Source: Bdellovibrionota bacterium
GTDB lineage: Bacteria > Bdellovibrionota_C > UBA2361 > JBGSMV01
DNA length: 20,539 bases
Reading direction: 5' to 3'
Assembly: GCA_041739995.1 (NCBI GenBank)
Contig: JBGSMV010000060.1
Coordinates: 1-20,539, forward strand
The notes beneath the pieces were generated by a model that worked only from the letters and a program-made list of their open reading frames with translations, had not been told where the DNA came from and made no database searches. The position numbers and the translations under genes are program-made. Within the stretch, counting starts at the first letter, position 1. Each line of letters starts with the position of its first letter. Shown here piece by piece: positions 1 through 20,539 of this stretch.

Positions 1-44
1 AAGTAGCGGTGCTTTAACTCGTCAAAACCTACTATTTCTCTCAT
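1..44 (-). CDS. Possible 5' end of an ORF reading out of the window (MREIVGFDELKHRY...), inside the terminal repeat
   Basis: ATG at 44-42 preceded by aaggttctggaaat; open for 14 codons to the window edge; same in the right copy. Too short to assign a product. Confidence 0.35.
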   Translation of the reverse strand, partial: MREIVGFDELKHRY

Positions 45-140
45 ATTTCCAGAACCTTATAAAAGTTCGGTAACTGGAATTATGAGGCTTCAACCACTCA
101 AACAGCTTCTCTTTGGTAACCTTTTTTATGAGGCTTATCG
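2..140 (-). repeat. Left copy of a perfect 139-bp terminal inverted repeat; probable end of a multi-copy mobile element
   Basis: 2-140 is the exact reverse complement of 20401-20539. Identity stops abruptly at ...aggcttatcg|atggc (left) versus ...aggcttatcg|ggtta (right, reverse-complemented). 53 of the first 140 bases are G/C (~38%), lower than the interior. Confidence 0.97.
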
Positions 141-160
141 ATGGCACCTCCCAAGAGGCT

Positions 161-706
161 CTATTTAACGTCTCGGCCCATAACCGTTTTTCTCCCCGCC
201 GCCTTCGCATTCTCTACGGCTTGCTTGCACGACAAAACTATCTGGGAGCTCAGCGCATCTATTGCACATTCGCTGGTATTAAAATCTGAGAGGTCTTTAA
301 CTAGTTTTTTCACTCTTGAAACAACTACCAGGGTCTCACTGTCAATTGAAGGCGAAGCTCCTGGCTTTGCAGAGAATGAAGAAACAGCGCCCGAGGCAGA
401 AGGAGAGGGCGGTGGGCTGGAGATAATAGTTCTACGGGGCGCTTGAGTTATGCGCCCTTCTTCGCCCGCTTCTAGAAACTCATTTTTACTCGGTGCTACC
501 GCTTCCTCAGCAAAGGCACTGCGGTGATTCGCAAATCCAAGATGCGCGTCCCAACAGGGCACCGAGCAAAATACGTAGCCCGTACGCTTTGCGCGACAGG
601 TACTCACCGAGCACACATAGTGCTTCTGTTGGAAGCTAAGTTCCTTCTTGCAGCCACTACAGCGCTTCCAAAATGTACGATTCTCGTCTGGTCCAGGTTG
701 GTTCAT
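161..706 (-). CDS. Bacterial histone-fold protein with N-terminal ZZ-type zinc finger (ZZ histone)
   Basis: C-terminal ETLVVVSRVKKLVKD..FNTSECAIDALS...AVENAKAAGRKTVMGRD closely resembles Bdellovibrio histone Bd0055, including the RKTV..RD motif. N-terminal CxxC-x12-CxxxxC-x9-CxxxCxxxH-x5-H; Pro/Ser-rich linker. Confidence 0.9.
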   Translation of the reverse strand: MNQPGPDENRTFWKRCSGCKKELSFQQKHYVCSVSTCRAKRTGYVFCSVPCWDAHLGFANHRSAFAEEAVAPSKNEFLEAGEEGRITQAPRRTIISSPPPSPSASGAVSSFSAKPGASPSIDSETLVVVSRVKKLVKDLSDFNTSECAIDALSSQIVLSCKQAVENAKAAGRKTVMGRDVK

Positions 707-863
707 ATGTCTCGCTCAGCCACTCACTCCGGCTCTGAAAAGATTAAGAGATTTTAGTCTGAAGCGATTCTCAGTGCTGCGCAACCTGGTGCTTAAATCA
801 TACGCGACCGACCGGCCCCTTGCAGCTCTTTAGGTCCTCCCACCGCTCTGACACAGAGAAGGC

Positions 864-1904
864 CTATTCGTTTTGCTCTGCCAGAAGTGACAAAATCGCT
901 GGTAAAAATGCAAACGACAACCAAATAACCAGCGAGGGCTGTGCAAACCCTGAAAAGTAGTTTGCACCAAAGAGAACACCGCACAAAATGGTGGCAAGAA
1001 AGGCCGCGCGCCGCTCTATCTGGGTGGATAGAAACCTTGCTGTGTGTAGGGCGCTAAGCGCGCGGATTGTCCGAAAATACTCGGCATTAAAAAATTGGTG
1101 CTTGCCAGGCAGGTACCCAAACAGCATGACCACGTTCTGGGCGATATATGCCCCTGCAAGTCCAAAGAGAAACCACTGAAAAATAGACTCTGCCCCGATG
1201 ACTGCATCACCGACCTCGAGCGAGCTTTCGATGGAGCTCAAGCCAAACATCCCGGTGAAATAGAGCGATCCAAAAACAACCATCACAAAACAAGACCACA
1301 AACTCAGCCATAACCGGTGGCCGTTCGAGAGCGGGATAGAAGAAAAAGCATGTGTCAAAGCGAATAGGGAAGGGACTGCAATGAGTCCCCCAACCAGGAG
1401 CAGAGCCTTTTCCTCAAAATAGCTTATAACTAAATACCAGAGCGAGTAGGTGTGAAGCAGAGTGTCTGCCTCGCCAAGTCGCGCGGTGTATAGTTTCTGA
1501 TGCTGGACAAGCACCACTATGAAAAAAGATATGGCGAAGTAAAATGGCCACATGCTCACATGTGCAGCAAACGAATAAGTAGATTCTCTCTTGCCTGGAA
1601 GAAAGGCCAGAAAGCTAAATAGCAAAGACACGCCAATAATTCGGAGCACCCTCTTGCTATCGCCAAGCAGACGGTAGAGCTCCCAAAAACAGCCCAGCAG
1701 AAACACCGTCATTTCAATCACCAGAGTCTGCGGACGCCCGAGCGTGTGGGTCAATAATCCCACGACGAGCAAGAGCAGCACCACGATGGCAAGGGACAGC
1801 AGATCGAGGAGCGGTGCTTTTGCTCGGTCGTTAATCTCTCTATCGGCAGTCGACCGAGCAGCTCGACTGCCGGCAGATTTCTTCTTAACTCGCCGCTTGT
1901 TCAT
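864..1904 (-). CDS. Polytopic membrane protein of unknown function (346 aa)
   Basis: Long ORF with about 10 hydrophobic segments, basic N-terminus and aaaagga upstream of the ATG; LPGK occurs twice. No family recognised. Confidence 0.75.
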   Translation of the reverse strand: MNKRRVKKKSAGSRAARSTADREINDRAKAPLLDLLSLAIVVLLLLVVGLLTHTLGRPQTLVIEMTVFLLGCFWELYRLLGDSKRVLRIIGVSLLFSFLAFLPGKRESTYSFAAHVSMWPFYFAISFFIVVLVQHQKLYTARLGEADTLLHTYSLWYLVISYFEEKALLLVGGLIAVPSLFALTHAFSSIPLSNGHRLWLSLWSCFVMVVFGSLYFTGMFGLSSIESSLEVGDAVIGAESIFQWFLFGLAGAYIAQNVVMLFGYLPGKHQFFNAEYFRTIRALSALHTARFLSTQIERRAAFLATILCGVLFGANYFSGFAQPSLVIWLSFAFLPAILSLLAEQNE

Positions 1905-2509
1905 CGACGTTCCTTTTCAGTGCGCGCATTACCCGCGTGCGTGGCTTGCTGTTCGCCCTGACTAGCTCTTATATGAATACTCGAGGCTTCGAGCTATCCG
2001 GCGCTCGTGGGCCGAAGAGGGGAGTCAAACAAGACTACGCCCTAGTCACCCTTAGTAAATCCCAATTTAACGCAGCGCTCGCTGCGAGCTCGGTTGATTT
2101 ATGAATTAGCTCGCTTGCTGCGGCCAAAGATTCGGTTTCCTCTATGATGAACTTCCTTCGCCGAATAGGCGATTGGCGGTTTGAAATGGCAACCCACGAC
2201 ACCCTCCCCACAATCACGATAACAAGCTAAATAGACTAGAGATTTTGGGTGGTGACTAGTCACCTTCTTCAGTCACCGACTTTCAATGGCGAGCCCAGCG
2301 CAGGGCTCGCCTCTTGTCGCCCCTTGGTTAAAACCTTCGGCTGCGGTAGGAGGGCGGTATAGGGATTCTATTTCGCTCTTTAATTTAAAGAGCCTCATTG
2401 TGGGGTCTTCCGAAAATGCTCGACCTACCTGGCCCCACGGGGTCTCCTCTCGAACCACAGGGAACGCCAACATCGAGGTCTGAAACGCCTCCGAGGTGGA
2501 CCGTCTCGG

Positions 2510-3358
2510 ATGGCAACATCCTCACCTCCGCCAGCCCGCGAGAGGAAAACGACGGAACCAGAGCCCGCCCAAATTGAGCCAAGCAGCAACGGCCTTGAAG
2601 CCCTATCTGTACCGGAGCGCAAAGTGCCGTGCTGGGTGGCTCGATATCGTTCGGGAGAACCACTCGGGAGCAGCATTATCAATCCCGATCTCGAACGAAG
2701 ACGCGACCCTGTTCTCCTAGCCCTCTTGAAGGAAAATCCGGATTGGAATCCAACCAACGAGCAGCGAGATTTTGTGGTTGGAACCAGATTCCTCGCCACC
2801 AAAATTGTTCCCGTGAAAGGCGTCAGGCGCTGGTTGGATTCTGCAGAAGGAAAGGCTTACGAGAATACTACCAAGGAATTTGAAGACCATTTCTCTTTGG
2901 CACTTTCCAATCTGCTTGTTCATCGATATCCGAGCGACCCGAAAGTGGTTGCTCTCACCCCGGACGATCAGCCTCGTAGATATAGCGAAACCCCAGCCTC
3001 GGACATTCTCGCGTCGCAGTGGTTGGTCGAGTCGCTAATCCTCTGTCTCCCGCGCCATCCTCCTCTCATTCCTTCAATGCTCCGTGTAGTTTCACAGGCT
3101 CGACAGGAAGAGATGTCGCTAGAGAGAGCCAACGGGATTCCTAATTCCCAACAGGGTATCCATTTCGGCGCAAAAGTAATCGCAAATTTCACCATGGCCA
3201 CCGTGATGGCTTACTATGCAGCCCGAGAAAATGGAGAACTGCAAACTGAGATCGGGCATTTGTTTTCACGCCTAACCGGATTCAGTGATTCTGCTGCAAT
3301 CCGCGGACTTGAGAGCGGGGCATTAGAGCTTTCCCTTGCAAAATTCCACCCTGAGTAA
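2510..3358 (+). CDS. Hypothetical protein (282 aa)
   Basis: Long ORF with protein-like composition; disordered N-terminus followed by a helical-looking region; gaggtgga upstream. No family recognised. Confidence 0.7.
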   Translation: MATSSPPPARERKTTEPEPAQIEPSSNGLEALSVPERKVPCWVARYRSGEPLGSSIINPDLERRRDPVLLALLKENPDWNPTNEQRDFVVGTRFLATKIVPVKGVRRWLDSAEGKAYENTTKEFEDHFSLALSNLLVHRYPSDPKVVALTPDDQPRRYSETPASDILASQWLVESLILCLPRHPPLIPSMLRVVSQARQEEMSLERANGIPNSQQGIHFGAKVIANFTMATVMAYYAARENGELQTEIGHLFSRLTGFSDSAAIRGLESGALELSLAKFHPE

Positions 3359-3368
3359 GAAGCGGAAC

Positions 3369-3788
3369 TCACTTGCAAGAGAGGCTTAGCAGCACCGCCT
3401 CAGGATCCTCCTGCGCATGATATCTAAAGAAAATGGTCGAGCGATTCTCGCCACACACTAAACGTAGCTCAGCATTAGGTTCGAACAGCGTCCGCGGCTC
3501 CTCCCATTTCCCCGACACCACGCCCACCGGCTTCCGGTCGACTTCAATACTCCAAGCTCCGCCTTCCGCCGAAAGAATGGGCAAGAAGCCAGAGGCCACG
3601 ATGCTCTTTATTACGTACACAAACTTCATCTGCGCTTCATAACGACGCAATTCATCAGGACCATTAAAGTCATCTGGTAATTTCGTTGATCCTGAGCTTA
3701 CGGAACAAGAAATCTTTGAGCTTACGCGAGAGGATTGGAGCAAGTGCCGAAGCAGGGTATGAGCCTTTGCCTTTCCGGTGAAAGGCAA
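3369..3788 (-). CDS. Small hypothetical protein; true start probably downstream of 3760
   Basis: C-terminal ~100 aa look like a compact globular domain (SGFLPIL..GGAWSI...PVGVVSGKWEEPR...FRYHAQEDPEAV). The track's start lies inside a 16-bp hairpin, so it is doubtful; an in-frame ATG exists at 3629. Confidence 0.55.
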   Translation of the reverse strand: MPFTGKAKAHTLLRHLLQSSRVSSKISCSVSSGSTKLPDDFNGPDELRRYEAQMKFVYVIKSIVASGFLPILSAEGGAWSIEVDRKPVGVVSGKWEEPRTLFEPNAELRLVCGENRSTIFFRYHAQEDPEAVLLSLSCK

Positions 3789-3795
3789 AGGCTCA
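3760..3795. repeat. Perfect 16-bp stem, 4-nt loop hairpin
   Basis: tgagcctttgcctttc-cggt-gaaaggcaaaggctca; no U-tract on either side. Confidence 0.85.
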
Positions 3796-3824
3796 GAAGG
3801 AAGAGTCCGCGTACTCGCTCAATT

Positions 3825-3867
3825 AAAAAGCGCCGAGGGATCCACCATAAGATGAACCCCTCGGCGC
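3825..3867 (-). terminator. Rho-independent terminator of the SYLF gene
   Basis: gcgccgaggg(3830-3839)/ccctcggcgc(3858-3867) stem extends to 15 bp with two G-U pairs only on the minus strand, and is followed by TTTTT; 40 bp after the 3907 stop. Confidence 0.8.
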
Positions 3868-3906
3868 AATGTTTCAGATCTGCTAACGTTCTCAGATCTA
3901 CGAACT

Positions 3907-4473
3907 CTATGCTTTAGGCTCGAACTGAGAGATCTTGGCACCTTGAAGTCCAAGACCCGCCATCAAACCCTTCTGCTCGAAGAAGAACGCATAGACTCCC
4001 TCGCGAAGCGTAGTGCTCGACAACGAGCTGGCCAACCCTTTGTCCACAATAGTCACCGATGGGCCTACTCCGATCTCCCAACCGTTGGAAGTGCGAAGAT
4101 ACTTAAGGTCTGAATCAGACATAAAGAAGAGCGCGTATCCATACTTCTGAACACCAGCCTGGAGTCCAAAGGAAGCTGCTGCAGTCTCATAGAATTCGGC
4201 CGCTTTCCCTTCTGTAAAGAGAACGCCTTCTCCGTACTGTCCACCAAAGATAAAGCCGGCCTTAGTGATGCTCGGGAATACCAAAATGCCTTTGGCCGAG
4301 TTCGACAAAGCAGCTGCACCAGGTGTGGACTTATACAAATCGGCCAAAGCTGCGCGGGCGTCCTTTTCCATTTCCGCAGCAGAATCGGCATGCGCAGAGG
4401 AGACGACGGGAGCAAAGACACAAGAAAACACAAACAAGACTGTGGTGATCGCGTACGATTTAAGAAAACGCAT
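3907..4473 (-). CDS. Lipid-binding SYLF (Ysc84/DUF500-like) domain protein, exported
   Basis: Signal peptide (..SSAHA|D); AKGILVFPSITKAGFIFGGQYGEGVL, SFGLQAGVQ, GWEIGVGPSV, QKGLMAGLGLQGAKI; RBS ggaga. Confidence 0.9.
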   Translation of the reverse strand: MRFLKSYAITTVLFVFSCVFAPVVSSAHADSAAEMEKDARAALADLYKSTPGAAALSNSAKGILVFPSITKAGFIFGGQYGEGVLFTEGKAAEFYETAAASFGLQAGVQKYGYALFFMSDSDLKYLRTSNGWEIGVGPSVTIVDKGLASSLSSTTLREGVYAFFFEQKGLMAGLGLQGAKISQFEPKA

Positions 4474-4883
4474 ATTGTTTCTCCGTTAAATTTAGGCGCA
4501 AGCACTATAAGCGAGCGATGTTACGGCCGCAATACTCACCACATTACGCGTATTTCTCGTGGTGTGCCGGCTCCCCCAGAATTAATTCAGCGAATGGTCG
4601 AAGTTCGCTCGGGTCGTCGTGCTTGATGTGGGCACGCCGACGGTGTGCGCCGCGACGACCATGCATCACGCCGATTAAGAGCTCGACCAGCATTCGAATG
4701 CCCTGCTATCCGGGGCCGAGGACAATCGCAAATGAAAACCAGAGGGAGTTTGGGGGCCCTTGGAGCACCCCAGGAGCGCACCCACACTAGGAATCCCTTC
4801 AGCAAATTCAAGCGGTTGCTCGTCAGAAAACGATTACTTACTGTTCCGAACCAACTTCGGAGCCCGCCTCATCAGAACACCTT

Positions 4884-5174
4884 ATGAATCCAGTAGACTC
4901 AAACCCAGCCTCAAATATCAACAAAACGCCTCCGCTGGCGCCCAAAGACATCGCTCCTAAAGCGCCTTCGGCTATTTCTAAACAAGCGCCCACGGCCATT
5001 TCAAAACACGAAGGCGTGGTCGCCTCAGTATCGCCCGCAATAAATAGCCCGGAACAGGCAGATGCAGAACTTTTGCGCATCAAGGCGCTGTTATCACCGT
5101 CGGGCGCACGTGCACTCGAGGCTTTCAACCCAACCGATGTGGCAAAGATTAATCGACTACTGTCGGACGACTGA
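4884..5174 (+). CDS. Hypothetical protein, largely disordered with C-terminal helices
   Basis: Pro/Ala/Ser-rich N-terminus with a short tandem repeat (KAPSAISK/QAPTAISK) and an amphipathic C-terminus (DVAKINRLLSDD). Confidence 0.6.
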   Translation: MNPVDSNPASNINKTPPLAPKDIAPKAPSAISKQAPTAISKHEGVVASVSPAINSPEQADAELLRIKALLSPSGARALEAFNPTDVAKINRLLSDD

Positions 5175-5221
5175 GTTCAGCGACCCAACCTGGACTAGAA
5201 ACGAGCGGCACCCGTTCAGCA

Positions 5222-5644
5222 TTAATCCACCTGCTGCGCCGTCAAGAACATTGCCTTTTCAAGTGCCGCAAAAAACTGCTGATACGGCTCGGGGTCAGTA
5301 ACCGGTTCAATGTTGTACTGCGCATTCGCTCGAACAATGAGCTGCTTCTTTCCTCTCGGCATCACCGAAACCGTAATGCGCAACGCATACCCATCGAGCT
5401 TGGTCCCGCTTATCGTGCCAAGATCAAGGTCTGCTTTATCCACCACGAAACTTAAATCCTGTAGCGTCTGAATGGCAGTGCGCAGAGTTAGACGTCGATC
5501 GGTTGTATCAAAGGCGCGCGACTGAATTTGTCGAAGCTGCACCTGAGACTGGTCACTATCGAGAATTCTCTGATTCGGAGGGACGCAGCCAAAGAGTAGG
5601 GGAGTTGCCACAATTAGAAACAGCGCCACCTTCCTTAAATCCAT
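5222..5644 (-). CDS. Lipoprotein of unknown function (paralogue of the upstream gene)
   Basis: Lipobox LLFG|C; RQIQSRAFDTTD...LQDLSFVVDKADLDLGTISGTK...PEPYQQFFAALEKAMFL; RBS ggagag. Confidence 0.85.
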   Translation of the reverse strand: MDLRKVALFLIVATPLLFGCVPPNQRILDSDQSQVQLRQIQSRAFDTTDRRLTLRTAIQTLQDLSFVVDKADLDLGTISGTKLDGYALRITVSVMPRGKKQLIVRANAQYNIEPVTDPEPYQQFFAALEKAMFLTAQQVD

Positions 5645-5665
5645 GCGAATTCTCTCCCGATCAGT

Positions 5666-6211
5666 CTAGATATTGTTAGCCTGCAAAAATACCGACTTGG
5701 AAAGTTTGTCGAAAAACTCCTGGTACAACACCGGCTCCTCAAGACTTTCAACTCGAGCGACCTGTCCGCGATCGTCAATAACAGTGCGTTGGAAAGTCAC
5801 CCTCACATTCATGGCGCCTTTAGCTGGGGAGCGAGTAACCACCGATGCTTTGATATGTTGCACCCTATCAACAGGCATATTCGAACCTGAAAGCAGCCCC
5901 AGGAGGATCGCACCCGCAACTTGGCTCGCACTGGTCGCATCTCTCGACTTAGACCCTGCAATCAGCCCAAGTTTGGTTTCGCTCTCGTCGATAGAAAACC
6001 CAATATCTTGGAGCACCATAGCGGAGGCTTGGAGAAGCTGAAGCTCATCCGAAGTATCGAACCGACGGGTCTGAAGTTGCCGCCGAGCAAGGGAGTCAGG
6101 CTGTAGCAGCAGTGCGTCTTTGGGAATCGTTGGGGCACAACCCTGCAGCGCTGCAGAGAAACCCAACAGTACCAAAGCCAAAAACACATCCCTGGCCGGT
6201 CTCAACTTCAT
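5666..6211 (-). CDS. Lipoprotein of unknown function (181 aa from the ATG at 6211)
   Basis: Start reassigned to MKLRP, 4 nt after the upstream stop; lipobox ALQG|C; RQLQTRRFDTSD...LQDIGFSIDESETKLGLIAGSK...PVLYQEFFDKLSKSVFL. Confidence 0.85.
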   Translation of the reverse strand: MKLRPARDVFLALVLLGFSAALQGCAPTIPKDALLLQPDSLARRQLQTRRFDTSDELQLLQASAMVLQDIGFSIDESETKLGLIAGSKSRDATSASQVAGAILLGLLSGSNMPVDRVQHIKASVVTRSPAKGAMNVRVTFQRTVIDDRGQVARVESLEEPVLYQEFFDKLSKSVFLQANNI

Positions 6212-6215
6212 GAAA

Positions 6216-6692
6216 CTAAAACCGAGAGGTATGGTAGGCAAAATCGCGCACCATCTTTCGGTCGTCGAACTTGATAATGACGGTAAAGGTCTTCTGACTT
6301 GTGGATGCAGCACCGCTTCCCGCGTTGTAACCACTCCCCACACCCCCGCCAACACCGCCACTTCCAAAGGTGCCTCCGCCGAAAATCAGAGATGAAATTC
6401 CGCCTGAATCCTGCGACTGAACATGCTCGGTCGAAATGCGGTCATAAATCCAAACCTCTCGACGATTCTCATCCGTCGTGACGATATTGGGAGAACCGAG
6501 CACACTGGCGACGTCCCCACCGGACATGCCGACTCTAATTTCCTTCTGAACGGTACCTACGGTGAGAGCGTCCCCCTCACGATCTGCGACTGCTTGGCGA
6601 TGCTGGGAAGCTCCCGCACACCCAATCACAAAGAAACACAGGGCGACCACGACAACTCGTTGCATCATTTTGACCATCCTAAATTTCCCCAA
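6216..6692 (-). CDS. BamE/SmpA/OmlA-like lipoprotein with Gly-rich insertion
   Basis: Lipobox FVIG|C; IRVGMSGGDVASVLGSPNIVT...EVWIY and TVIIKFD...VRDF match the SmpA/OmlA fold pattern. Exact start Met uncertain. Confidence 0.8.
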   Translation of the reverse strand: MGKFRMVKMMQRVVVVALCFFVIGCAGASQHRQAVADREGDALTVGTVQKEIRVGMSGGDVASVLGSPNIVTTDENRREVWIYDRISTEHVQSQDSGGISSLIFGGGTFGSGGVGGGVGSGYNAGSGAASTSQKTFTVIIKFDDRKMVRDFAYHTSRF

Positions 6693-6908
6693 AAATATGA
6701 AGGCTACAGACCGGGGCTATCAGCGCTCCGAATATAGCGCGACGACACCAGAGGGCCAGCCTAAAGAATAGCATGGCAAGCAGGGGACGTTACCCCGTAG
6801 AGGGCCGCTAGCGGATTGGTCTATGTCATCGTAAGAACTAGGGGTAGTCGAACCCGAACACCAACCTCTCTTCTGAGGGAGTTCGCAAGCCTTTACACGG
6901 TAATCTGT

Positions 6909-7349: not shown

Positions 7350-7376
7350 GTCGGGTAGCGGAGCTGCGCGTTGCTC

Positions 7377-7526
7377 TTAGATACGTTCGTGGTGAAGAAT
7401 GGAAAGATGCTCAGCCCGTAGCCAGAAATCAACGCCATCGGGTGCATCTGCTTCTTTCCGTATAATAAGATAGGCAAGACCCACGAGGCCACAGAAGAAA
7501 TCTAAGACGAGTGTCCCCGTATCCAT
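7377..7526 (-). pseudogene. Frameshifted, 3'-truncated small membrane protein gene (YGKKQ-type ~65-70 aa family)
   Basis: ATG 7526 gives MDTGTLVLDFFCGLVGLAYLI; skipping one base at ~7463 continues YGKKQMHPMALISGYGLSIFPFFTTNV. The expected final hydrophobic helix is absent. The unshifted frame stops at 7377-7379. Confidence 0.65.
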
Positions 7527-7544
7527 ACAGTGCCAACTCTTACT

Positions 7545-11737: not shown

Positions 11738-13663
11738 ATGAAGCGAAACCGCGCAGCAGTGATTTTCTTTGCTGCTGCAATAGCTCTTGTCTCCACTGCG
11801 GAAGCACAGGACAAGATTACTTCGAAGAAGCCTATCCCCAATTGGTCAGCACCTGCTTCGGAGGGCGATCCAAAAGTTAGTGATCAAGGTATTGCAGAGA
11901 GTGCCGTTAGTTTTGATCAAATCAAGGAATTTCTACACTCAGACCTAAAGTCCGCCGAGTTTATCAGGCAAGATAAATTCGGTGATGCTGTTCGCCGTGA
12001 ACGCAACGTAACCTTTGCGGAAGCCTACGAAGGACAAGGGGAGCCGGTGGGAGGGCAGTCGCTCGGATTCTCAGAGCCCCAAGAGTTTTTGGTCGCTGGA
12101 TGTTCTCTCTCTCCGGTGAACACTACCCGAGTCAGTTTTACACCAGTCAAATTTTGCGAAGGAAAGCCGATTCGGCTCACCGATGTTTCGGCGACACATC
12201 ATGTGGTTGGACACTATCGTCGTCAGTCCGATGGGCGTTATCACTCGTTTCGTTTGTTGTCTCAGGTTAACGGAGGTTACTCCGATGTTAAGGTTCTTAG
12301 TAACGGCCCCCACAATATCCCAGGTGCGGATTCAGGCACGCTCGCGCTTGGGTTGTCAGCAAACGGTCAGGTAATTGTTGGAATGGGGCATGCAGAAGGG
12401 GGCCAGAGGCCGATTCGATGGCAATCAATAAATCATGCCCCAACGATGCTCTCTAAAGTTCCTTGTCAAGGCGGAAACGGGTGTGATCTCCCCACCAATG
12501 GATCGAGCGATAAGGGAGAAGCGACTGCGACTAATATCGATGGCAGCGTAATTGTGGGGAGCTACAGTATTTCTGGACTTTCCCAACATTTTCGAGCGCG
12601 ACGCTGGGTCGTCAATCCCGTAACGGGAGCTGTGATTTCTAGTCAGCAAATTCCCGATCCCGTCGATGGGAGTCTTGGCGCTTGTGTGGGATCAGGCGCA
12701 CCAAGTGGTGCATATTCTGGATATGGAGTTTGCATGTCGTTTGGTTATGGAGTGAACTCGAGCGGCAATTCCCTGGTGGGGTTTTATCGCCACCGAATTG
12801 GAGGAGGAGCTGCGGTTGCGCGACCCTCTTTGCCGTTTCTGTGGTATCTTGAGCGGTCAGACACGACCGTCCTTCCACGACTTTTCACCCCCACTTCGTT
12901 CTCTTGGCAGGCGGGCAGTGGTGATGCCGATCTTGCTAGCGGGGCACGAGCCACGATTTCTGGAGATCTTGGGTTGCGACCGCATGGGAAAGCGAACGCC
13001 ATATCGGCAGATGGCTGGTCCATTGTTGGTTCTGATACCACCGGTTCTGCTGCACGAAATTCCTATCCCAGTATTTTTTATCCGCGGATTCCCACTCTTC
13101 TTACTGGCGCATTGCCGTCCGATACTGACCTTGCGGTCGATCCGGACGATGGTGGTCCGTCTGGGGTAATTAGCGTGGGGAGAACAACCGAGGATGGATT
13201 CAGATGGCGTCCGACTGCGTATCGTGGAACGGCAGGAGTCATGACCCCAATGCGCGACGTGGAAGATGAGTATTTCACTGGTCTCGCGAGTAATTTTTCG
13301 CGAAGTATCTACAATGATACTTCTAACGGAGGTTGTCGAACCGTCGGGAAGAGCTATGCGGGGGGAATGAGTGGCTTTCCTGACGCTGAATTTCTTGAGA
13401 CCGCGGTAGTTCGTCCCGGAATCGATTGTGCCACCGAATCTTGTCGCAAGAGTCAGCGCCTGAAAACGGAAGTAAATCGAATTATGGGGAATGGCAGGGG
13501 AATCGATGCTAATAATCCCATGACAGCCGCTTGGCAGCTGACGGAGGCTACCGGGATTTCTCCAGATGGTAAGACGATAATCGGTAATGCGATCTGCCAT
13601 CAGCAGGGGCAAGTGCTTGATATCGAAAATCAAGTTGGCTTTATCGTAGAAATTAAGAGCTGA
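11738..13663 (+). CDS. Secreted protein with HAF-type extracellular repeats (probable beta-propeller)
   Basis: Signal peptide from M at 11738 (MKRNRAAVIFFAAAIALVSTAEA|Q); repeats ALGLSANGQVIVG, ATATNIDGSVIVG, GYGVNSSGNSLVG, ANAISADGWSIVG, ATGISPDGKTIIG; paired Cys insertions. Confidence 0.8.
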   Translation: MKRNRAAVIFFAAAIALVSTAEAQDKITSKKPIPNWSAPASEGDPKVSDQGIAESAVSFDQIKEFLHSDLKSAEFIRQDKFGDAVRRERNVTFAEAYEGQGEPVGGQSLGFSEPQEFLVAGCSLSPVNTTRVSFTPVKFCEGKPIRLTDVSATHHVVGHYRRQSDGRYHSFRLLSQVNGGYSDVKVLSNGPHNIPGADSGTLALGLSANGQVIVGMGHAEGGQRPIRWQSINHAPTMLSKVPCQGGNGCDLPTNGSSDKGEATATNIDGSVIVGSYSISGLSQHFRARRWVVNPVTGAVISSQQIPDPVDGSLGACVGSGAPSGAYSGYGVCMSFGYGVNSSGNSLVGFYRHRIGGGAAVARPSLPFLWYLERSDTTVLPRLFTPTSFSWQAGSGDADLASGARATISGDLGLRPHGKANAISADGWSIVGSDTTGSAARNSYPSIFYPRIPTLLTGALPSDTDLAVDPDDGGPSGVISVGRTTEDGFRWRPTAYRGTAGVMTPMRDVEDEYFTGLASNFSRSIYNDTSNGGCRTVGKSYAGGMSGFPDAEFLETAVVRPGIDCATESCRKSQRLKTEVNRIMGNGRGIDANNPMTAAWQLTEATGISPDGKTIIGNAICHQQGQVLDIENQVGFIVEIKS

Positions 13664-13693
13664 ATAAAATCCGACACGAGTACTCTCCCTAAC

Positions 13694-16042
13694 TTAATTG
13701 GCTGATACGAGGATATAGGGGTTTCCACCGACAGTCTGTTGGACGCACCGCGCCGCTTGTTCGGAGGGTTCCCATTCCCGCGGGGCACAGTAGAATGTGG
13801 AGGGCCATTGCGCACAGGGACTGAGCGATCCATCTGGCTCATAGCAAGACCCCCCACACGCAGGACATTGAGCGGGAGTGCAGATATCGAGTAGCGGACA
13901 CATGAGGCCCCCAGAGTCCAGCGAAAGATAGGTAAACACCCAATTTGGGTCTCTGAAAATTCTTGTATCATTGGCGGAGTTCTTCTCACCAACTTTTTCG
14001 TAGGCATCCTCTTCGCTTGTGCCGTTGAGCTGAGTGTACTCCACTAAGCTCTTTGCTGCGTTTCTATCTCTGGAGCTTTGAGCCCAAAGCTCTCGGAGAG
14101 TGGCGTGCCCCGATCCAGAAGGCGACAGTGCAAATTTGAAGTTTGGCTGCACAAGCTCCCCTCGCAATAGCGTAGTAAGAGCAATGCGACTCTGGGTAAG
14201 TTTGTTACGAATGCTATCGACTCCAGGGCCAATGAGATTTTCTACGGCACTCAAATAGCTAGTGTGGTCCTTAGGTGCGGGGCAGCTCTGAACGCCCGTA
14301 ACAGGATCAGTATCACACGTCATCAGTCCGTCCGTCGCAAGAACTATCGATTTCTGGGCACTTGCGGGGCAGATGTTGATGTCAGCCAGACGATCAATAG
14401 CAAACTTGAGAGCGCCAATGATGTCCGTGTCCCGGTTGTTGGTCCGGTCAACAGGGAACCATCCCATGTCGATATAGTTTGGGTGAAGTTCCCCTGGAAC
14501 AACTGGAAAGGTCCCGCCTGGGGGCCACCCGGGTGGGCTAGTCACTGGTCGATACGGAGATGCCGTCTCCCAATTAGTAATGGTTCCTCGGTTGAGATAG
14601 TTTGTCGTCTGAACGAGAAACGAAAGATTACGTTCGACCTTGTCCAGAGCGGTGTCGGCGGGGAATACGTTCATCGGTACTTTTCCGAATGGGACCACCA
14701 TTGCACCATCTGCACCTGTTGTTTGGAGTTGTATGAGTCGAAGACCTGCATTGAATGCTGTGAGGAAGGTAGACAATGGTTCGGGGTTGTTGACGTGGTC
14801 GATTCGCACATACCCGTAGGGAGTTCCGCGATCGAGATAATGCTGGCGGTAATGCTTCAGAATTTGAGGAGCTCCGCCGGGGGTGACTGGGTAAGCCAAG
14901 GGAGTCGCATTCCCGCCACGATCGAGAAAGCCACCATTCTGCATCGCAAGATTGCACCACACGAGTCCGGAGTTATTCCCGGGAACCAAAATTGCGCCGT
15001 TGTTGTCGAGATTGCACCATGAAAGAGTGGTAGTGTTATTCTGCGGGTCGGGGAGTCCTCCTCCTACATGCAAATCTTGCGTAAGCATTGCAAACATCGC
15101 GCTATTGTTCGGACAGAGCACGCGGCCCGGTCGTGGCGAAAGCAAATACACCGGTGGCGGCGGCGGAGGGGCGAGTTCGGCGTCACACTCTACCCAGGGT
15201 GGATAGGGAAGACCCGTATCAGGGTCGTTGCCGGTGACAATAGTTTCGGGCGAGGAGTCCCACGGGCGCGAGACGTATGGGAGTCGTAGGTTACCGCTGG
15301 GAAGTTTGTGGCTCTCGTCAGTGGTCGATAGCGAGACATCTAACACAAACGCCACGCACCGTTGTGCAAGGGAGGCGGTAACGGAGCTATTAATCTGGGA
15401 GTTCTCCTGCCCGAGGATCGAGGCGATCGGTACGATAATAGGATTCGAGGCCGCGTTTCTGGCTAACACCCGAACCGCATTTACTGGGAAGAATGGGTTT
15501 TCCGGTTCGAACGTCGCCGAATCAACTGGCTTGAAGCAAGGATATGCCGGAGGAGGACCGTCGCACGGAGTCAGCGGGCCCGTCCCATCAGGATCTTCAG
15601 AGAAATACGATCCAGGCTCGAGGAGGCCTCCAGTATCCACCGTTTCCGTCTCATCAACGAGGCGCAATCCGCCCAAACTAGAATTCGTAAGTGCAAGATC
15701 GTTGCTACCGAGTATGAAGTTGGCTCTGTCTCGAGCGAAGTCCGCGAGATCTCTGGGAGGGTGATTAGCGGGATCTGCCCTTTTATCTATGTACTCCTTA
15801 AGCGCAGCCAGGGAGGCGAGGTTGGCCGCCTGCTGAAGACGAGTGCTCCCCGTTGCCACGATGCCAAGGCCGATCGAGAGGGCGACTAAAGCCAGAAGAG
15901 CAAATGAGGCAATTACAAAAAAGACGATGACAAACCCCGACTCGCCACGGCACATCGGGCTTTGCAGCCCTCTAGCCAGAGTTTTCTGTCCAGCACCACC
16001 TGATGCAATGGTACCTGATGACTGAATCGATGTCGGAGACAC
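13694..16042 (-). CDS. TadG-like minor pilin/adhesin with interrupted vWA domain and Cys-rich C-terminus
   Basis: ESG|FVIVFF hydrophobic N-terminus; RLQQAANLASLAA Tad motif; MIDAS elements VAFVLDVSLS, TDIIGAL and IVLATDG; RBS aggagg overlapping the upstream stop. Confidence 0.82.
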   Translation of the reverse strand: MSPTSIQSSGTIASGGAGQKTLARGLQSPMCRGESGFVIVFFVIASFALLALVALSIGLGIVATGSTRLQQAANLASLAALKEYIDKRADPANHPPRDLADFARDRANFILGSNDLALTNSSLGGLRLVDETETVDTGGLLEPGSYFSEDPDGTGPLTPCDGPPPAYPCFKPVDSATFEPENPFFPVNAVRVLARNAASNPIIVPIASILGQENSQINSSVTASLAQRCVAFVLDVSLSTTDESHKLPSGNLRLPYVSRPWDSSPETIVTGNDPDTGLPYPPWVECDAELAPPPPPPVYLLSPRPGRVLCPNNSAMFAMLTQDLHVGGGLPDPQNNTTTLSWCNLDNNGAILVPGNNSGLVWCNLAMQNGGFLDRGGNATPLAYPVTPGGAPQILKHYRQHYLDRGTPYGYVRIDHVNNPEPLSTFLTAFNAGLRLIQLQTTGADGAMVVPFGKVPMNVFPADTALDKVERNLSFLVQTTNYLNRGTITNWETASPYRPVTSPPGWPPGGTFPVVPGELHPNYIDMGWFPVDRTNNRDTDIIGALKFAIDRLADINICPASAQKSIVLATDGLMTCDTDPVTGVQSCPAPKDHTSYLSAVENLIGPGVDSIRNKLTQSRIALTTLLRGELVQPNFKFALSPSGSGHATLRELWAQSSRDRNAAKSLVEYTQLNGTSEEDAYEKVGEKNSANDTRIFRDPNWVFTYLSLDSGGLMCPLLDICTPAQCPACGGSCYEPDGSLSPCAQWPSTFYCAPREWEPSEQAARCVQQTVGGNPYILVSAN

Positions 16043-16051
16043 TTCGCCCTC

Positions 16052-17653
16052 CTATCCGTTAATTATACCGTTTGGACACGCGCAACAGCAGTCGAGCGTT
16101 GGCCCCAAGTTGGTGTCCCATGCTCTGCATTCTGGCTCCGCTGGGCCTGGTGGATCTGTGCACTGCGGATCGCCAGGTCGCGGGTCGAAGCACTCCGCAG
16201 GGCAACCACTTGGAGTCGGAGTGTTGGTTGCTGTAGCGGTCGGTGAAGTAGTGGCGGTAGCGCTTGGAGTAGCCGTGTGTGTCGGAGTGCCGGTGCTTGT
16301 TGGTGTCCGTGTTCGAGTAGGTGTGCGGGTATTCGTCGCTGTGCCTGTTGCGGTGGCGGTGCCAGTGGCGGTGCGGGTTGCGGTTGCAGTAGCAGTCGAT
16401 GTTGCCGTTCCTGTATTAGTTGGAGTTCCGGTTTCCGTAGCCGTCCCGGTTGCAGTTCCTGTTGCGGTTGCAGTTCCCGTGTTCGTTGGCGTAGCAGTTT
16501 GAGTCGCTGTTACGGTTACGGTTGGCGTCATGGTCGCGGTGGCCGTATTAGTTGCAGTGCCGGTATGAGTCGGCGTTCCAGTCTCCGTTGGTGTGGCAGT
16601 AATCGTAGCGGTTGCAGTGGCCGTTCCAGTTGCAGTAGGCGTTACTGTCTCCGTGGCTGTGCTTGTTACTGTTGGTGTTGATGTGGCGGTGCCTGTAGCG
16701 GTTGCTGTGCCGGTCTGCGTAGCTGTGCCAGTTTGGGTTGCAGTTCCCGTACTGGTAGCCGTGACGGTGGCTGTTCCCGTTGCGGTCGGTGTCTCCGAAG
16801 GTAACGACGTTGGAGTCTCGGTTGGAGTTGCCGTCGAGGTCGTTGTTGGCGTCGCTGTTGCGGTTTGCGAAGGCACTGGAGGGAGACGTCCAAGACCGAA
16901 CTTGCCGGATTTCCGAAATCCAAGGGCGGAGGCACTGATTCTAAATTCACTCAGAAAAAACGGAATAATTGGTCGAAAGGTAACTTCGATGCGAGCCGCG
17001 AGCGGATTCTCTTGAAACACAGTGTCCCATGTTTCAAGGGGAGAGGGCCAATAGAGCGGAGGAACAGAGTCTTCTCCGCGCAGAGGGTGCCACTCCCGGC
17101 CCGATGCAGGGGGGACGCGGTCCATAAACTCTCCAGGGCGAAGAAAGCCAATTGGAGAATTTCTTGTAATGAGACCGCTCCATGCGTCATAGCTTGCGGC
17201 GCCGACCGCGTCATATTCGGCTTTGTTGTACATTCGGAATGCGACGAGCTCAGCCATCCCGCCACTTGCAGGGGGGGAGGCGACTAACGAAGCAGTGCGA
17301 AGTGCTCGCGAGGTTGGCCCAACGAGCTGAAGGATGAAATCATTAAAGGTTTGGCACTGAGCGAGGTTAGTGGGGTTCGAGGTGCAGAAAGTTTCAGTGG
17401 TCTCAATCTCCATTGCGAATTTAGTCGCATCGTCAATCGCCTGATGTGCGCTAAGAGAGAGAAATATGGAAATCAGGAAGTAGCGACAAAGGTCGATGAA
17501 GGCAAGAAGAGTAAGTAGGAAGACGGGGAGCACTATGATCGCTTCCACGAGCGAGACCCCACGCACATAGTGCGATCGCGGAGGCGATTTTCGGATCTTA
17601 CCTGTGCTGTGCATACGTCCAGCAAGAAACCCCAAAAACCTGCTCCTGTCCAT
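16052..17653 (-). CDS. TadE-like minor pilin with long Thr-rich stalk and Cys-rich tip
   Basis: RG|VSLVE AIIVLPVFLLTLLAFIDLCR TadE motif; ~220-aa (T-x)n tract; 8 Cys in the last ~50 aa (…DCCCACP). Confidence 0.85.
   Translation of the reverse strand: MDRSRFLGFLAGRMHSTGKIRKSPPRSHYVRGVSLVEAIIVLPVFLLTLLAFIDLCRYFLISIFLSLSAHQAIDDATKFAMEIETTETFCTSNPTNLAQCQTFNDFILQLVGPTSRALRTASLVASPPASGGMAELVAFRMYNKAEYDAVGAASYDAWSGLITRNSPIGFLRPGEFMDRVPPASGREWHPLRGEDSVPPLYWPSPLETWDTVFQENPLAARIEVTFRPIIPFFLSEFRISASALGFRKSGKFGLGRLPPVPSQTATATPTTTSTATPTETPTSLPSETPTATGTATVTATSTGTATQTGTATQTGTATATGTATSTPTVTSTATETVTPTATGTATATATITATPTETGTPTHTGTATNTATATMTPTVTVTATQTATPTNTGTATATGTATGTATETGTPTNTGTATSTATATATRTATGTATATGTATNTRTPTRTRTPTSTGTPTHTATPSATATTSPTATATNTPTPSGCPAECFDPRPGDPQCTDPPGPAEPECRAWDTNLGPTLDCCCACPNGIING
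16211..16867 (-). repeat. Low-complexity coding repeat (TATATGTAT/TPT; 6-nt periodicity)
   Basis: Thr at almost every second codon with varied codons, so the repeat is degenerate at the DNA level. Confidence 0.9.
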
Positions 17654-18427
17654 CTATTCTCTTTGTTTTTAGGATCCTAAGCGAGTTTGTGGAGCGGTTA
17701 TTCCCGATAGCCGCCACCGTTCTTAACGACTTGATATTATTGAGATTAGAAGCGCCCATCCGTCTCGTGGACTCGATAAATGCAAAGGACGATGTGATGC
17801 GACATCGTCAACGCTAACGGAGCGAAGTGAGCACGTGGAGAAACTCTTTGATTAAGGACCCGACGGCTACTGAGAGCAAACTCTGAGCTTTTGAGTGCAA
17901 AATGCGCGGCGAAGTAGGACGCTTGATTCTGTTGGGTATCCCCAAACCGTTGGCGGGAACGCACGTGAAGCGTCTGCCCCTGAGATGTTATTAGAGATCG
18001 CAACTTCAAACGCGGGGCAGAGTGGTGAGTGTGATTCAAATCAGAATGCCTGCCAAATCGCTAGAGGCAGCTGAAATGCTCATGCGCCGAAGCGCGGTAA
18101 GCAAAGGAACCTTCTTTCTAGAACCTGGGAGCGACCTCTCGCCCTGGCCGGGTGGACACCCGCACTGTGTCCCCTGCAATTTGATCAAGGCGAATGCGAG
18201 GAGAGGAAACTAGGAAGGCAAGAAGTCGCAATGTGATGTCGCGTAATGACCCGGTGTTCAAATTAGCTCAGCCTTCAGGCTGGATCGCCAAACTGAATTT
18301 GCATGGCGTTGATTCACGGGTTAAGCATGGGCCCCATAGATGTTTAAACTCTTGCACGGCTAATTTGGGAGTGTGTGCCGCGCGAACCCGGGAGCTAATT
18401 CCCTCCGTCGCTTGTTGAGACAGCCCT

Positions 18428-19000
18428 GTGCCTAAGAACCATAACAGTGCTCCAGGCATTTCTCTGGGGAGGTTCCGTTTGCCACAAAGGATCGGTCAGG
18501 TCTTGTTTGCTGGGTTAGTGATGTCGATTGGGGCCTTTACTGTAGTCGCCGCTACCCGCATGGTCTTCCGCCAATCCTTCCCCTCAACTTCCATACATGT
18601 CGGTGATCTTAGAGTGGCCTATTTTGCGCAGACTTTAGGCGAGTTGAGGGTTCACCGGTCCGTCGAGAACGAACCCTTACTTATCGGAGGAGTGATGTAT
18701 CCATCCGGGATTGGAACGCATGCAAACTCTGAGGTGAAAGTTCGCTGGAGTAAGTCGGCGCGAGAATTCAAGGGGGGGTGCGGCATTCACGACAATGCAG
18801 GCCCTTTAGGAAGTATTGTTTGCAGTGTCGTCATAGGGACGCGGCGGGTTGCCGTATCCCCGTTGTTACGGCGGGGCGATCCTGCCTGGGAGTTCGTTGT
18901 TGGTGTCGGTGGAGTGACGGAATTGATGCTGATCGCCACTAACGGCGAAGATGGTTTCTCCCATGATCATGTGAACTGGGTAAATCTCAGGTTGCGATAG
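18428..19000 (+). CDS. Membrane-anchored NPCBM/NEW2 carbohydrate-binding domain protein
   Basis: One N-terminal TM helix; PLLIGGVMYPSGIGTHANSE, GIHD..G..GSI, SPLLRRGD, ELMLIATNGEDG.SHDHVNW motifs. Confidence 0.85.
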   Translation: MPKNHNSAPGISLGRFRLPQRIGQVLFAGLVMSIGAFTVVAATRMVFRQSFPSTSIHVGDLRVAYFAQTLGELRVHRSVENEPLLIGGVMYPSGIGTHANSEVKVRWSKSAREFKGGCGIHDNAGPLGSIVCSVVIGTRRVAVSPLLRRGDPAWEFVVGVGGVTELMLIATNGEDGFSHDHVNWVNLRLR

Positions 19001-19067
19001 ACTGGAGATGTGCGCTGACCTTCGACATAGGGGGTTGTTTCACGAGTCAAAAATGGAGTGACTGCGC

Positions 19068-20519
19068 ATGCTTGTTCCTCCGACAGTTCGGCGATTTTTT
19101 TCACGCAGCGGAGACGAACGATCGCAAGCCTATTTACTTGCGCTCCTTTTTCTTGTCCTTGCGGCACACCTCGCAGCTCGTGCTTGGAGCCGTTCCTATT
19201 TTGTGAATGGCTGGGATTTGCTCGGTCCGACGCGTGGATTGGTTGAACTGAGTCAGGGTTCGGCCCTTTCGGGATTCCTAAGTTTTTGGCGGACAAGCAT
19301 AGATTATGTCTATGGAGTGCCCTCCAATGGCCTGATATATGGTTGGCTTGCTGGGCTGCTCTATCAATTGAGTGGTACGGCCTTTATCTCTCACTATATT
19401 TCTCTAGGCGTACTTCTTCTCACGATTGTTTTGAGTCTTGGCCTTCTGCCATCTCAGTCAAAGGTGGTATTTCTTGGTTGCATTCTTTCATCTTCTTCGA
19501 TCATTTCATTCGGATTGATTGGAAACACCCCCATTACCGGCCCGCTTGGCGTGGTGCTAGCGCTGCGCCTCCTATTTGCTCAGCGCTTTAATGTGAGCCA
19601 TTGGGGCATGTGGCTCTTCGAGGTTCTTTTGTGGACTCTGCTCTATTGCTTTGGCTACCAAATCTACGAGGGTAGTAAGATATACCTAACTGCGCTTCCT
19701 TTCATCGGAGTGCTCACCCTTAACCAGATTCCCAAAATACGCCGAGCGACATGGGGGCTGGTTTCTATTTGCTTTTTCTACGGATATTTCCTGGCCGGTC
19801 ACAATGAAGTGCACGGGTATAGTTTTCCTTGGGGGTTTGATGAAATTCTGAGCGCTGCACAGTTGTATGTTTTTCATGCCTTCACTGATGAGAACTTAGA
19901 CCCTCCGTACCTCCTGGTATGCACGGCCGTTGCACTTTGTTTGGGTCCGAGACATCACCGCCTGTTTTGGCTTGGGGTTGCTGCGGTGTGCATGACTTCC
20001 GCAGTCTGCATGGCCTTCCAAGGCGCTCCTGCCATTCGACCAAGAAGGTTGCTAGTGAATCAGTATCTATTCTGCATAATCATCAGTGTGGCTTGGGAGA
20101 GTCTGCGTACGAGGGTCTTTCCTCGCCTGGTAGGAGCTGGGCTTATTGCGCATGGCATCGTCGCCAACTTGTTCGTCACCCTGACATTTTCCCTTTCAAC
20201 ATCGATGGGTCCGTTCTCACTTCCGAATTCCGGCGCTGCAACCGACTATAGAATCGATCGGGTAGCAGTTCACGAGGCGCATGCACTTGGCGCAATGATT
20301 GCGAGAGACTCCGCTACTTATATCATTCTCTATGGCTATTCACTGATGGCGGAGAATGAGGGAGACCCTCTTGCCCTACCGGAGCGACTCCTTCTTAACC
20401 CGATAAGCCTCATAAAAAAGGTTACCAAAGAGAAGCTGTTTGAGTGGTTGAAGCCTCATAATTCCAGTTACCGAACTTTTATAAGGTTCTGGAAATATGA
20501 GAGAAATAGTAGGTTTTGA
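19068..20519 (+). CDS. Polytopic membrane protein, possibly GT-C-fold glycosyltransferase; native sequence ends at 20400 and reads into the terminal repeat
   Basis: About 11-12 hydrophobic segments, acidic residue in the first loop (VNGWD), then a soluble C-terminal region. The last 38 aa (ISLIKK...NSRF) are encoded by the repeat. Confidence 0.7.
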   Translation: MLVPPTVRRFFSRSGDERSQAYLLALLFLVLAAHLAARAWSRSYFVNGWDLLGPTRGLVELSQGSALSGFLSFWRTSIDYVYGVPSNGLIYGWLAGLLYQLSGTAFISHYISLGVLLLTIVLSLGLLPSQSKVVFLGCILSSSSIISFGLIGNTPITGPLGVVLALRLLFAQRFNVSHWGMWLFEVLLWTLLYCFGYQIYEGSKIYLTALPFIGVLTLNQIPKIRRATWGLVSICFFYGYFLAGHNEVHGYSFPWGFDEILSAAQLYVFHAFTDENLDPPYLLVCTAVALCLGPRHHRLFWLGVAAVCMTSAVCMAFQGAPAIRPRRLLVNQYLFCIIISVAWESLRTRVFPRLVGAGLIAHGIVANLFVTLTFSLSTSMGPFSLPNSGAATDYRIDRVAVHEAHALGAMIARDSATYIILYGYSLMAENEGDPLALPERLLLNPISLIKKVTKEKLFEWLKPHNSSYRTFIRFWKYERNSRF

Positions 20520-20539
20520 CGAGTTAAAGCACCGCTACT
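20401..20539 (+). repeat. Right copy of the perfect 139-bp terminal inverted repeat
   Basis: Exact reverse complement of 2-140; contains the tandem sites at 20405-20432 and 20451-20478 and an ATG at 20497. Confidence 0.97.

Follow-up and report, generated by a model that had tools for sequence, protein, structure and literature searches.

The window analysed here, a whole contig of 20,539 nucleotides from a Bdellovibrionota bacterium, is best explained by two copies of one insertion sequence (IS) that inserted separately and in opposite orientation into continuous chromosome, with both contig ends broken within the IS; we put the probability of this reading at about 0.93. The order in the chromosome would be C10, IS, window, IS and C61, where C numbers denote contigs of the assembly. 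The left copy would have landed between genes and the right copy would have cut a membrane-protein gene, each insertion duplicating 4 bp of its target, and both copies would point their transposase-proximal end at the window. We infer these links and the full length of both flanking IS copies, given that no read or contig examined spans a whole flanking copy. The features are listed in Table 1.

Table 1. Features of the window (positions 1 to 20,539) that bear on its two ends and on the DNA between them.
Feature	Position	Strand	Remarks
Left arm	1..140	-	IS positions 140..1, transposase-proximal "A" end; reaches the contig end at the assembler overlap length
Start of transposase gene, 14 codons + 2 nt	1..44	-	ATG at 44-42
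Subterminal second copy of end motif	66..90	-	76% like 112-136; direct repeat
IS terminal inverted repeat, imperfect, 5'-CG start	111..140	-	About 22/31 aligned positions against the other IS end, one 1-nt gap
Target-site duplication ATGG, left IS copy	141..144	+	Partner C10:70300-70303
Resident chromosome between the insertions	145..20396		Pfam scans, composition
Last ORF before the left IS	161..706	-	181 aa, no family
Multi-pass membrane protein gene, 5' part	19068..20400	+	444 codons + 1 nt; cut by the right IS; resumes at C61 base 118
Target-site duplication AACC, right IS copy	20397..20400	+	Partner C61:114-117
Right arm	20401..20539	+	IS positions 1..139, same "A" end, forward orientation
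Terminal repeat of right arm	20401-20430	+	Within right arm
Second end-motif copy, right arm	20451-20475	+	Direct repeat
Transposase ATG, right arm	20497-20499	+	Sequence reading

Both a repeat search and direct reading showed that positions 2-140 and 20401-20539 form an inverted repeat of 139 nt, 100% complementary at a spacing of 20,260 nt, as the first-pass annotation had described. The arms are AT-rich (37.9% GC vs 52.85% for the interior, 141-20400), and their inner flanks show no relatedness, which agrees with that annotation as well. A perfect repeat of this length is far beyond chance; the next-longest inverted pair within the window is 27 nt at 70%. Base 1 likewise belongs to the repeated unit, since window 1-140 is matched in full at four other sites of the genome. 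The claim that no mobility gene lies inside stood in part: no transposase, integrase, Rep or polymerase family was found by Pfam (E<=0.001) in 55 ORFs of at least 80 aa, but each arm contains the start of a transposase gene, namely its first 14 codons. The reverse complement of window 1-44 equals positions 385-428 of locus L015, which is the beginning of a 393-aa ORF.

The full IS, 1293 bp long, was assembled whole once, at C77:4688-5980. Its sole ORF (393 aa, IS positions 97-1278) is uninterrupted, its product passes the Pfam rve cut-off (36.6 bits against 32.6), and D168, D229 and E265 do not vary among 16 aligned sequences; judged by its sequence, the element is an rve/DDE insertion sequence. 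A sequence search returned no solved structure resembling the transposase at E<=0.1. The ends, set by 14+14 flank comparisons, are imperfect terminal inverted repeats of about 30 bp starting 5'-CG, and at each end the end motif occurs again about 46 bp further inward. These repeated motifs are putative transposase-binding sites, the subterminal copy in the left arm being a candidate second site. Transposition would presumably proceed by cut-and-paste or copy-out-paste-in, as is typical of rve transposases. It had been remarked earlier that the end is not of the TG type, which the 5'-CG termini bear out, while the element type, then left unidentified, can now be given.

The end of the IS seen in the arms ("A") is present in 14 genome copies at 100% identity, 13 of them at contig ends, and the opposite end ("B") also has 14 copies, again with 13 at contig ends. 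All A and B ends are 100% identical over shared bases, and the flank is different at every copy. The left arm, for example, matches C77:4688-4827 and 12 other contig ends at 100% identity; counted by contig, the same 140 bp end 11 further contigs besides lying inside C77. The element thus has what defines a DDE-class IS: its own transposase, defined terminal repeats, a fixed duplication and identical copies at unrelated sites. It was probably active recently. Two identical insertions of a multi-copy element, the same end facing inward, had been the first-ranked reading of the window, and it is the one that the copy counts and the 1293-bp IS uphold.

The length of the arms points to the assembler. 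At 105 of the 162 contig ends the terminal sequence is found again at another contig end, and the commonest overlap, counted from the listing, is 141 bases (38 of 105; 140 bases in 6 more). Because overlaps of about 141 bases are general across the assembly, the arm length is set by the assembler, as had been suspected from its closeness to k=141; contig names with "k141" in related MAGs show how common this setting is. In the proposed sequence of events, a k-mer-graph assembly of the window contig would have halted on either side within a copy of the same multi-copy IS, and the retention of about k-1 repeat bases per contig end would leave a perfect inverted repeat of 139/140 bp. Repeat-induced contig breaks in de Bruijn graphs likewise give ends that share about k bases with other contigs; what departs from the textbook case is that both ends of this contig lie in the same end of the same IS. 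Logan contigs from four runs of one study join the arm to the flanks of C63, C5, C51 (two runs) and C57, although the MAG itself may derive from one of these runs, which are therefore not independent support. In the same four runs the summed depth of the last bin, which holds the arm, is 6-22 vs about 2-5 elsewhere, a figure that is not a copy number.

The flanks of the IS copies carry the evidence for separate insertions. When the last 4 bases of each A flank were compared with the first 4 of each B flank, 11 of 196 pairings matched, all one-to-one, so that 11 of the 14 left-end flanks are paired with right-end flanks by exact 4-bp duplications; five offset controls gave 0, 2, 1, 1 and 1 matches, and no 5-mer or 6-mer matches were found among the A x B pairings. 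The left flank of the window pairs with the end of C10 and its right flank with the start of C61. The pairing with C10 is based on four bases alone, with a chance of a false partner among 14 of about 5% by our own arithmetic. Gene order in three relatives was compared at the left junction: the C10 gene belongs to a large paralogous family with 62-71 matches per genome, and the window gene at 864-1904 matched nothing. Three A flanks (C5, C22, C77:4688) and three B flanks (C7, C8, C77:5951) have no 4-bp partner, and the only fully assembled copy, in C77, has no target duplication. Either some copies are not simple insertions, or the partner contigs are absent from this 91%-complete genome.

The left IS is intergenic, because the last ORF before it ends with a stop codon 20 nt short of the insertion; towards C10, 261 nt separate the IS from the start of the closest gene. 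The right IS interrupts a gene for a multi-pass membrane protein. When the empty site was computed by joining the window to C61, a single open frame of 563 codons resulted, extending 350 nt into C61. Homologues of the broken gene in genomes G001 and G032 (25-27% identity) extend beyond the break, and they have in common with the C61-encoded part a motif, C-R-[FY]-x-C-[LVF]-P, 18-20 residues after the break. The C61-encoded part alone shows weak homology (E 0.09-0.6). A word-based search of 8000 candidates returned no homologue of the window part at E<=1e-5, so the continuity of the gene is read from these two distant genome homologues. A scan of metagenome contigs for an empty site gave 0 exact matches to the 30-nt right inner flank. 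Contigs from four runs of one study were aligned to window 540-20539; none extended beyond 20400 into sequence other than the IS, nor were any joints reported, but with a depth of 2-5 and rare variants dropped this has no bearing on empty sites or inversion.

An arrangement of this kind might also invert. The 20.3 kb between the IS copies could flip by homologous recombination, both orientations being present in the population, and this is compatible with the two separate insertions favoured here. Inverted identical repeats of 1.3 kb, such as the two copies would provide, are good substrates for RecA-dependent inversion; the same IS end stands at both window ends, so either orientation would yield identical contigs, and the flanks without a partner, three A and three B, suggest that the IS has caused rearrangement at other places in the genome. 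However, contigs from the public runs cannot bridge 1.3 kb of repeat and offer no direct evidence of flipping, inversion would leave the membrane-protein gene broken, and no regulatory logic is apparent. We regard an invertible cassette as improbable.

The DNA between the two IS copies is normal chromosome. Its genes include TadE/TadG-like pseudopilin genes as well as NPCBM, PD40, DoxX, BamE-like and Ysc84-like genes, and many ORFs have no family. Its GC content is 52.85% vs a genome mean of 52.37% (sd 0.88) in 20-kb chunks, and its tetranucleotide distance falls at the 90th percentile of 157 chunks. A foreign island was considered but rejected on these figures, as GC deviates by no more than 1 sd from the mean and the tetranucleotide distance reaches no higher than that percentile.

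The first-pass annotation had seen in the window a potential composite transposon, in which the 20.3 kb and the two IS copies moved in as a unit. The window does resemble the Tn10/IS10 and Tn5/IS50 composites in having two inverted copies of one IS around a passenger segment, with identical IS ends on both sides; for some interior genes, homologues in the nearest genomes are distant or missing, and the tetranucleotide distance just given would also suit such an origin. Had the segment moved as a unit, however, the two outer flanks would carry one duplication, and neither IS copy would have matching bases on its inner and outer sides. The opposite was observed: the outer flanks differ (ATGG in C10 vs AACC in C61), and each is repeated on the inner side of its own IS. 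In addition, the gene split by the right IS has one half in the segment and the other beyond it, and the GC of the interior departs from the genome mean by less than one sd. The transposase also belongs to another family than those of Tn10/IS10 and Tn5/IS50. Since each IS has its own duplication and a gene straddles the boundary, the segment did not come in as one unit, and a composite transposon is very unlikely.

Two further readings, both raised earlier, are left with next to no probability. That the window is a whole linear plasmid or phage bounded by genuine terminal inverted repeats would fit the perfect repeat and the plausible contig size, but this reading is effectively excluded by the copy count of the 140 bp over other contigs and inside the complete 1293-bp IS of C77, as well as by an arm length equal to the assembler overlap, by the right-end ORF that carries on into C61, and by the absence of polymerase, terminal protein, Rep and phage genes from the 55 window ORFs. 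An artefact (adapter, vector, a chimeric hairpin contig or another organism's DNA), which the closeness of the repeat length to k might suggest, is equally excluded by an arm that is part of a complete multi-copy IS and leads into a coding transposase with database homologues, by target duplications at the IS ends, by the same end layout in long-read MAG relatives, and by separately assembled Logan contigs (four runs) in which the arm adjoins flanks that it also has in this genome.

The IS has many relatives. A database search found 1779 proteins homologous to the transposase, and 548 related loci are present in species-representative genomes from many bacterial phyla and one archaeon; the relatives are about 40% identical to the window's IS. 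In four long-read MAGs, related elements of 1305-1468 bp have the 5'-CG / TTGCCTCA-like / GTTACCGAAGG-like end layout of the window's IS, 5'-CG opening the left end in each of the four relatives compared, and identical 4-bp flanks are present in 22 of 29 full copies of relatives. The best NCBIfam match of the transposase is IS481 (E 1.1e-11), whose 44.8 bits do not reach the cut-off of 224; IS481 is also best in nine of ten relatives, at 25-48 bits, the tenth being without a match. The NCBIfam IS3 model gives 29.1 bits, far below its cut-off of 160, and RefSeq labels plasmid homologues only as "DDE-type integrase/transposase/recombinase". By likeness of sequence, the element is a member of a clade that is widespread, has no name and resembles IS481 distantly; its ends start 5'-CG and it duplicates 4 bp of target.

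The window's IS resembles the IS481 family in its length of about 1.3 kb, its single transposase ORF without a frameshift, and its rve core with the triad D..D..(36)..E. IS481 itself has TGT...ACA ends, unlike the 5'-CG...CG-3' ends found here. The IS3 family shares the rve-type DDE core, and its duplications are short, at 3-5 bp; however, IS3 elements have orfA and orfB joined by a programmed -1 frameshift, whereas the window's IS has one uninterrupted 393-aa ORF, and it is without the TG...CA ends of the IS3 family. According to ISfinder, as quoted in the excerpts of PMC10045372, IS481 target duplications range over 2-15 bp, which includes the 4 bp of the window's IS, whereas most members have 6-bp duplications (PMC10045372). 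In the same excerpts, TGT...ACA or TNT...AYA ends are reported only for eukaryotic IS481EU relatives, and the clade of the window's IS does not appear (PMC10045372).

The clade is marked by 5'-CG termini, by a duplication of strictly 4 bp and by an end motif that occurs twice at each end. One public-run contig has an IS end attached inside a lone IS-end-like motif, at a site that this assembly shows uninterrupted, which hints at end-targeted insertion. The IS in this genome may still be active, and the inverted pair could flip or mobilise the 20.3-kb pilin-like segment. Taken together, the IS and its relatives may represent a distinct uncurated family or a deep sub-clade of IS481, possibly active and end-targeted, with an inverted pair that may flip or mobilise the segment; as a whole this combined picture is doubtful.

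For genome assemblies, these results indicate that a contig whose two ends form a perfect inverted repeat about k-1 bases long signals a collapsed repeat and not an element boundary, and that 4-bp duplications can order contigs without reads; eleven joins are proposed, including C1-C10-window-C61. For biology the finding has little weight, being an ordinary structure from which a false lead has been removed. For the elements, the family models searched give the clade no name, and the anatomy of this widespread rve-type IS clade is now documented in its ends, duplication length and catalytic residues.

The window's ends are a routine assembly break within two independently inserted copies of one insertion sequence (IS), bearing out the first-ranked reading of the first-pass annotation, a break inside two copies of a multi-copy element. 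The window is the entire contig C40 of a genome assembled in 81 contigs (3.81 Mb, rated 91% complete). The claimed inverted repeat is real: 2-140 equals the reverse complement of 20401-20539 at all 139 nt; the arms are indeed AT-rich (GC 37.9%, against 52.85% in the interior), and the sequences directly inside them are dissimilar, in line with the unrelated inner flanks described. The search of the window's own genome with the 140-bp arm gave 14 matches at 100% identity, 13 of them at contig ends (both window ends included) and one internal (C77:4688-4827). Comparison of C77:3001-9000 with the genome defined the repeated unit as C77:4688-5980, 1293 bp, whose opposite end (C77:5841-5980) also occurs in 14 copies, 13 at contig ends. 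The whole IS has a GC content of 51.6%, near the genome's 52.4%; the arm is low in GC because it is the AT-rich non-coding tip of the element. The proposed k-mer origin of the arm length also held: across the assembly, the terminal sequence recurs at another contig end for 105 of 162 ends, and by our count the overlap is most commonly 141 bases (38 of the 105), with 140 bases in 6 more. The arms are thus as long as the k-mer overlap of the assembler, and their length is not that of a biological repeat. The statement that no mobility gene lies inside stands for 141-20400, where none of the 55 ORFs of at least 80 aa matched a mobility family, but fails for the arms, each of which holds the first 14 codons of the transposase gene.

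Aligning the 14 flanks of each end set the termini of the IS to the base, with a 5'-CG start and a CG-3' end. Its terminal inverted repeats are imperfect (~22 of 31 positions, one gap), and the end motif is duplicated ~46 bp further inward at each end. A single 393-aa ORF occupies IS positions 97-1278; it scores 36.6 bits against Pfam rve, above the curated cut-off of 32.6. Its only NCBIfam matches, to IS481 (44.8 bits) and IS3 (29.1 bits), fall well short of the respective cut-offs of 224 and 160. D168, D229, and E265 are invariant among 16 aligned sequences, including relatives down to 39% identity, and are the predicted DDE triad expected of a transposase.

We compared the chromosomal flanks of the transposase-proximal (A) and opposite (B) ends. 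Among 196 pairings, the last four bases of A equalled the first four of B in 11, all one-to-one, while the identical test at five offsets off the junction gave 0, 2, 1, 1, and 1 matches; no 5-mers or 6-mers matched in the same pairings. These one-to-one matches and controls show that target duplications by the IS are exactly 4 bp long, and they link the two sides of every former empty site. For the left inner flank of the window the partner is the end of C10 (ATGG, window orientation), for the right one the start of C61 (AACC), and for the other end of C10 it is C1. Thus, the ancestral order was C1 - C10 - window - C61, along which the first two IS copies are reversed and the third is forward. 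A 4-bp partner is absent for three of 14 A flanks (C5, C22, C77:4688) and three of 14 B flanks (C7, C8, C77:5951), and the sole fully assembled copy, C77:4688-5980, has no target duplication (ACCA vs AAAC). The unpaired flanks would be accounted for by deletion or inversion through the IS, or by contigs absent from the bin, and the unpaired copies could be hybrids left by IS-IS recombination. At its right end, C12 carries 135 nt that share 95.6% identity with IS-flanking DNA in C5 and run uninterrupted over the insertion point; this is the C5 site in a diverged form without the IS, either a strain variant or a duplicate.

Inversion of 141..20400 by recombination between the inverted 1.3-kb IS copies is possible: C10-[141..20400]-C61 and its inversion would give identical contigs, because the same IS end lies at both window ends, and the 4-bp duplications show ancestral rather than present-day adjacency. 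The segment, seen in the first-pass annotation as a potential composite transposon, did not arrive as one. Transposition as a unit needs one duplication on the two outer flanks, which instead differ (ATGG in C10, AACC in C61), each agreeing with the flank on the inner side of the adjoining IS. A linear replicon and an artefact were both excluded. Between the two independent insertions lie 20.3 kb of resident chromosome.

The left IS is intergenic, 20 nt past the stop of a 181-aa ORF (161-706) and, on the C10 side, 261 nt upstream of a 1133-aa gene; the window/C10 pairing, made by four bases, is probable, with a false-partner chance that we estimate at ~5%. At the right junction, the IS appears to cut a membrane-protein gene. 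Removing the IS and one duplication copy by script gave a single 563-codon open frame at the window/C61 join, spanning 1339 nt before the junction and 350 nt after it; by our own arithmetic (~3 stops per 64 codons), the chance of ~116 further stop-free codons is ~0.4%. The window part has a homologue in only three of 40 related genomes searched (25-36% identity). In two of these, G001 and G032, the homologous frame extends 387 and 238 residues past the cut point and carries a C-R-[FY]-x-C-[LVF]-P motif 18 residues beyond it; the C61-encoded continuation has the motif at residue 20, and alone matches these homologues weakly (E 0.09-0.6). The homologue continuation and common Cys motif support the window/C61 pairing.

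Other features lie inside the window (table below). DNA at 10004-10452 is 75% identical to C11:9766-10214, and the aminotransferase-like ORF looks like a gene fragment within a gene-poor stretch (9333-10853). Thr-X repeat DNA lies at about 16209-16850.

Other genes inside the window
Feature	Position	Strand	Remarks
120-aa ORF	10030-10392	-	match to the class I/II aminotransferase profile limited to 183-293 of its 361 positions
Second TadE-like gene	10854-11456		near the 533-aa TadE-like gene
782-aa protein	13694-16042	-	sub-threshold Tad (TadE/G-like) match, 21.5 bits (cut-off 22.3); adjoins the 533-aa gene
533-aa TadE-like protein	16052-17653	-	Thr-X dipeptide repeats (T-A, T-G, T-P etc.) over ~210 residues, then Cys-rich tail

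Four public runs of one study (X1-X4; hot-spring and biofilm metagenomes, Logan contigs, depth 2-5) contain 43-68% of the sampled words of 10401-20400, and are not independent because they may include the genome's own source sample. At 20399-20401, the IS arm is bordered in run contigs by flanks other than the window's; three correspond to A flanks in this genome, those of C63, C5, and C51. The fourth, in one X3 contig, joins the A end to C57:13150, where the assembled C57 is uninterrupted. This point lies inside a lone motif (C57:13140-13172) with 80% similarity to the final 30 nt of the IS, the only IS-end-like site in the genome outside IS copies. This one contig suggests a polymorphic, possibly IS-end-targeted insertion, and hence a recently active IS. 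Contigs from all four runs also depart from the window at 10281, and contigs from two to four runs leave it at 8736, 10940, and 16691 for sequence absent from the genome; the latter may be strain variants, or other organisms with short common stretches.

Database homologues of the transposase number 1779 at E<=0.001 (best 92% identical) and lie mostly on ~1.3-2 kb contigs; those named by their source are "hypothetical protein", save one evident misnomer. Plasmid relatives occur in 269 records, all below 60% identity (35-38% among the 15 matches listed), annotated as "DDE-type integrase/transposase/recombinase" or plain "transposase". Species-representative genomes contain 548 loci that encode a relative; identity is 37-42% for the 80 retained, which belong to Gammaproteobacteria, Nitrospirota, Fibrobacterota, Verrucomicrobia, Zixibacteria, Spirochaetales, one Methanosarcinaceae archaeon, and others. 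Related elements in four long-read multi-copy MAGs measure 1305, 1468, 1308, and 1306 bp, with ends built alike from 5'-CG, boxes resembling TTGCCTCA and GTTACCGAAGG, and, deeper inside, a second box; identical 4-bp flanks border 22 of their 29 full copies. Two copies in the Fibrobacterota MAG (L048, L051) lack matching 4-bp flanks of their own, and the first four bases of the L048 right flank are the last four of the L051 left flank, as expected after recombination between two copies.

The clade works like IS481/IS3-type elements, yet falls below the curated NCBIfam scores of both. IS481 elements end in TGT...ACA, whereas the ends of this clade differ, being 5'-CG...CG-3' in the IS described here. 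The element described here makes 4-bp duplications. Those of IS481 are put at 2-15 bp, mostly 6 bp, in one published account (PMC10045372). The modest yield is a view of how one widespread but poorly annotated clade of IS elements is built, together with a hint of its activity in these samples.
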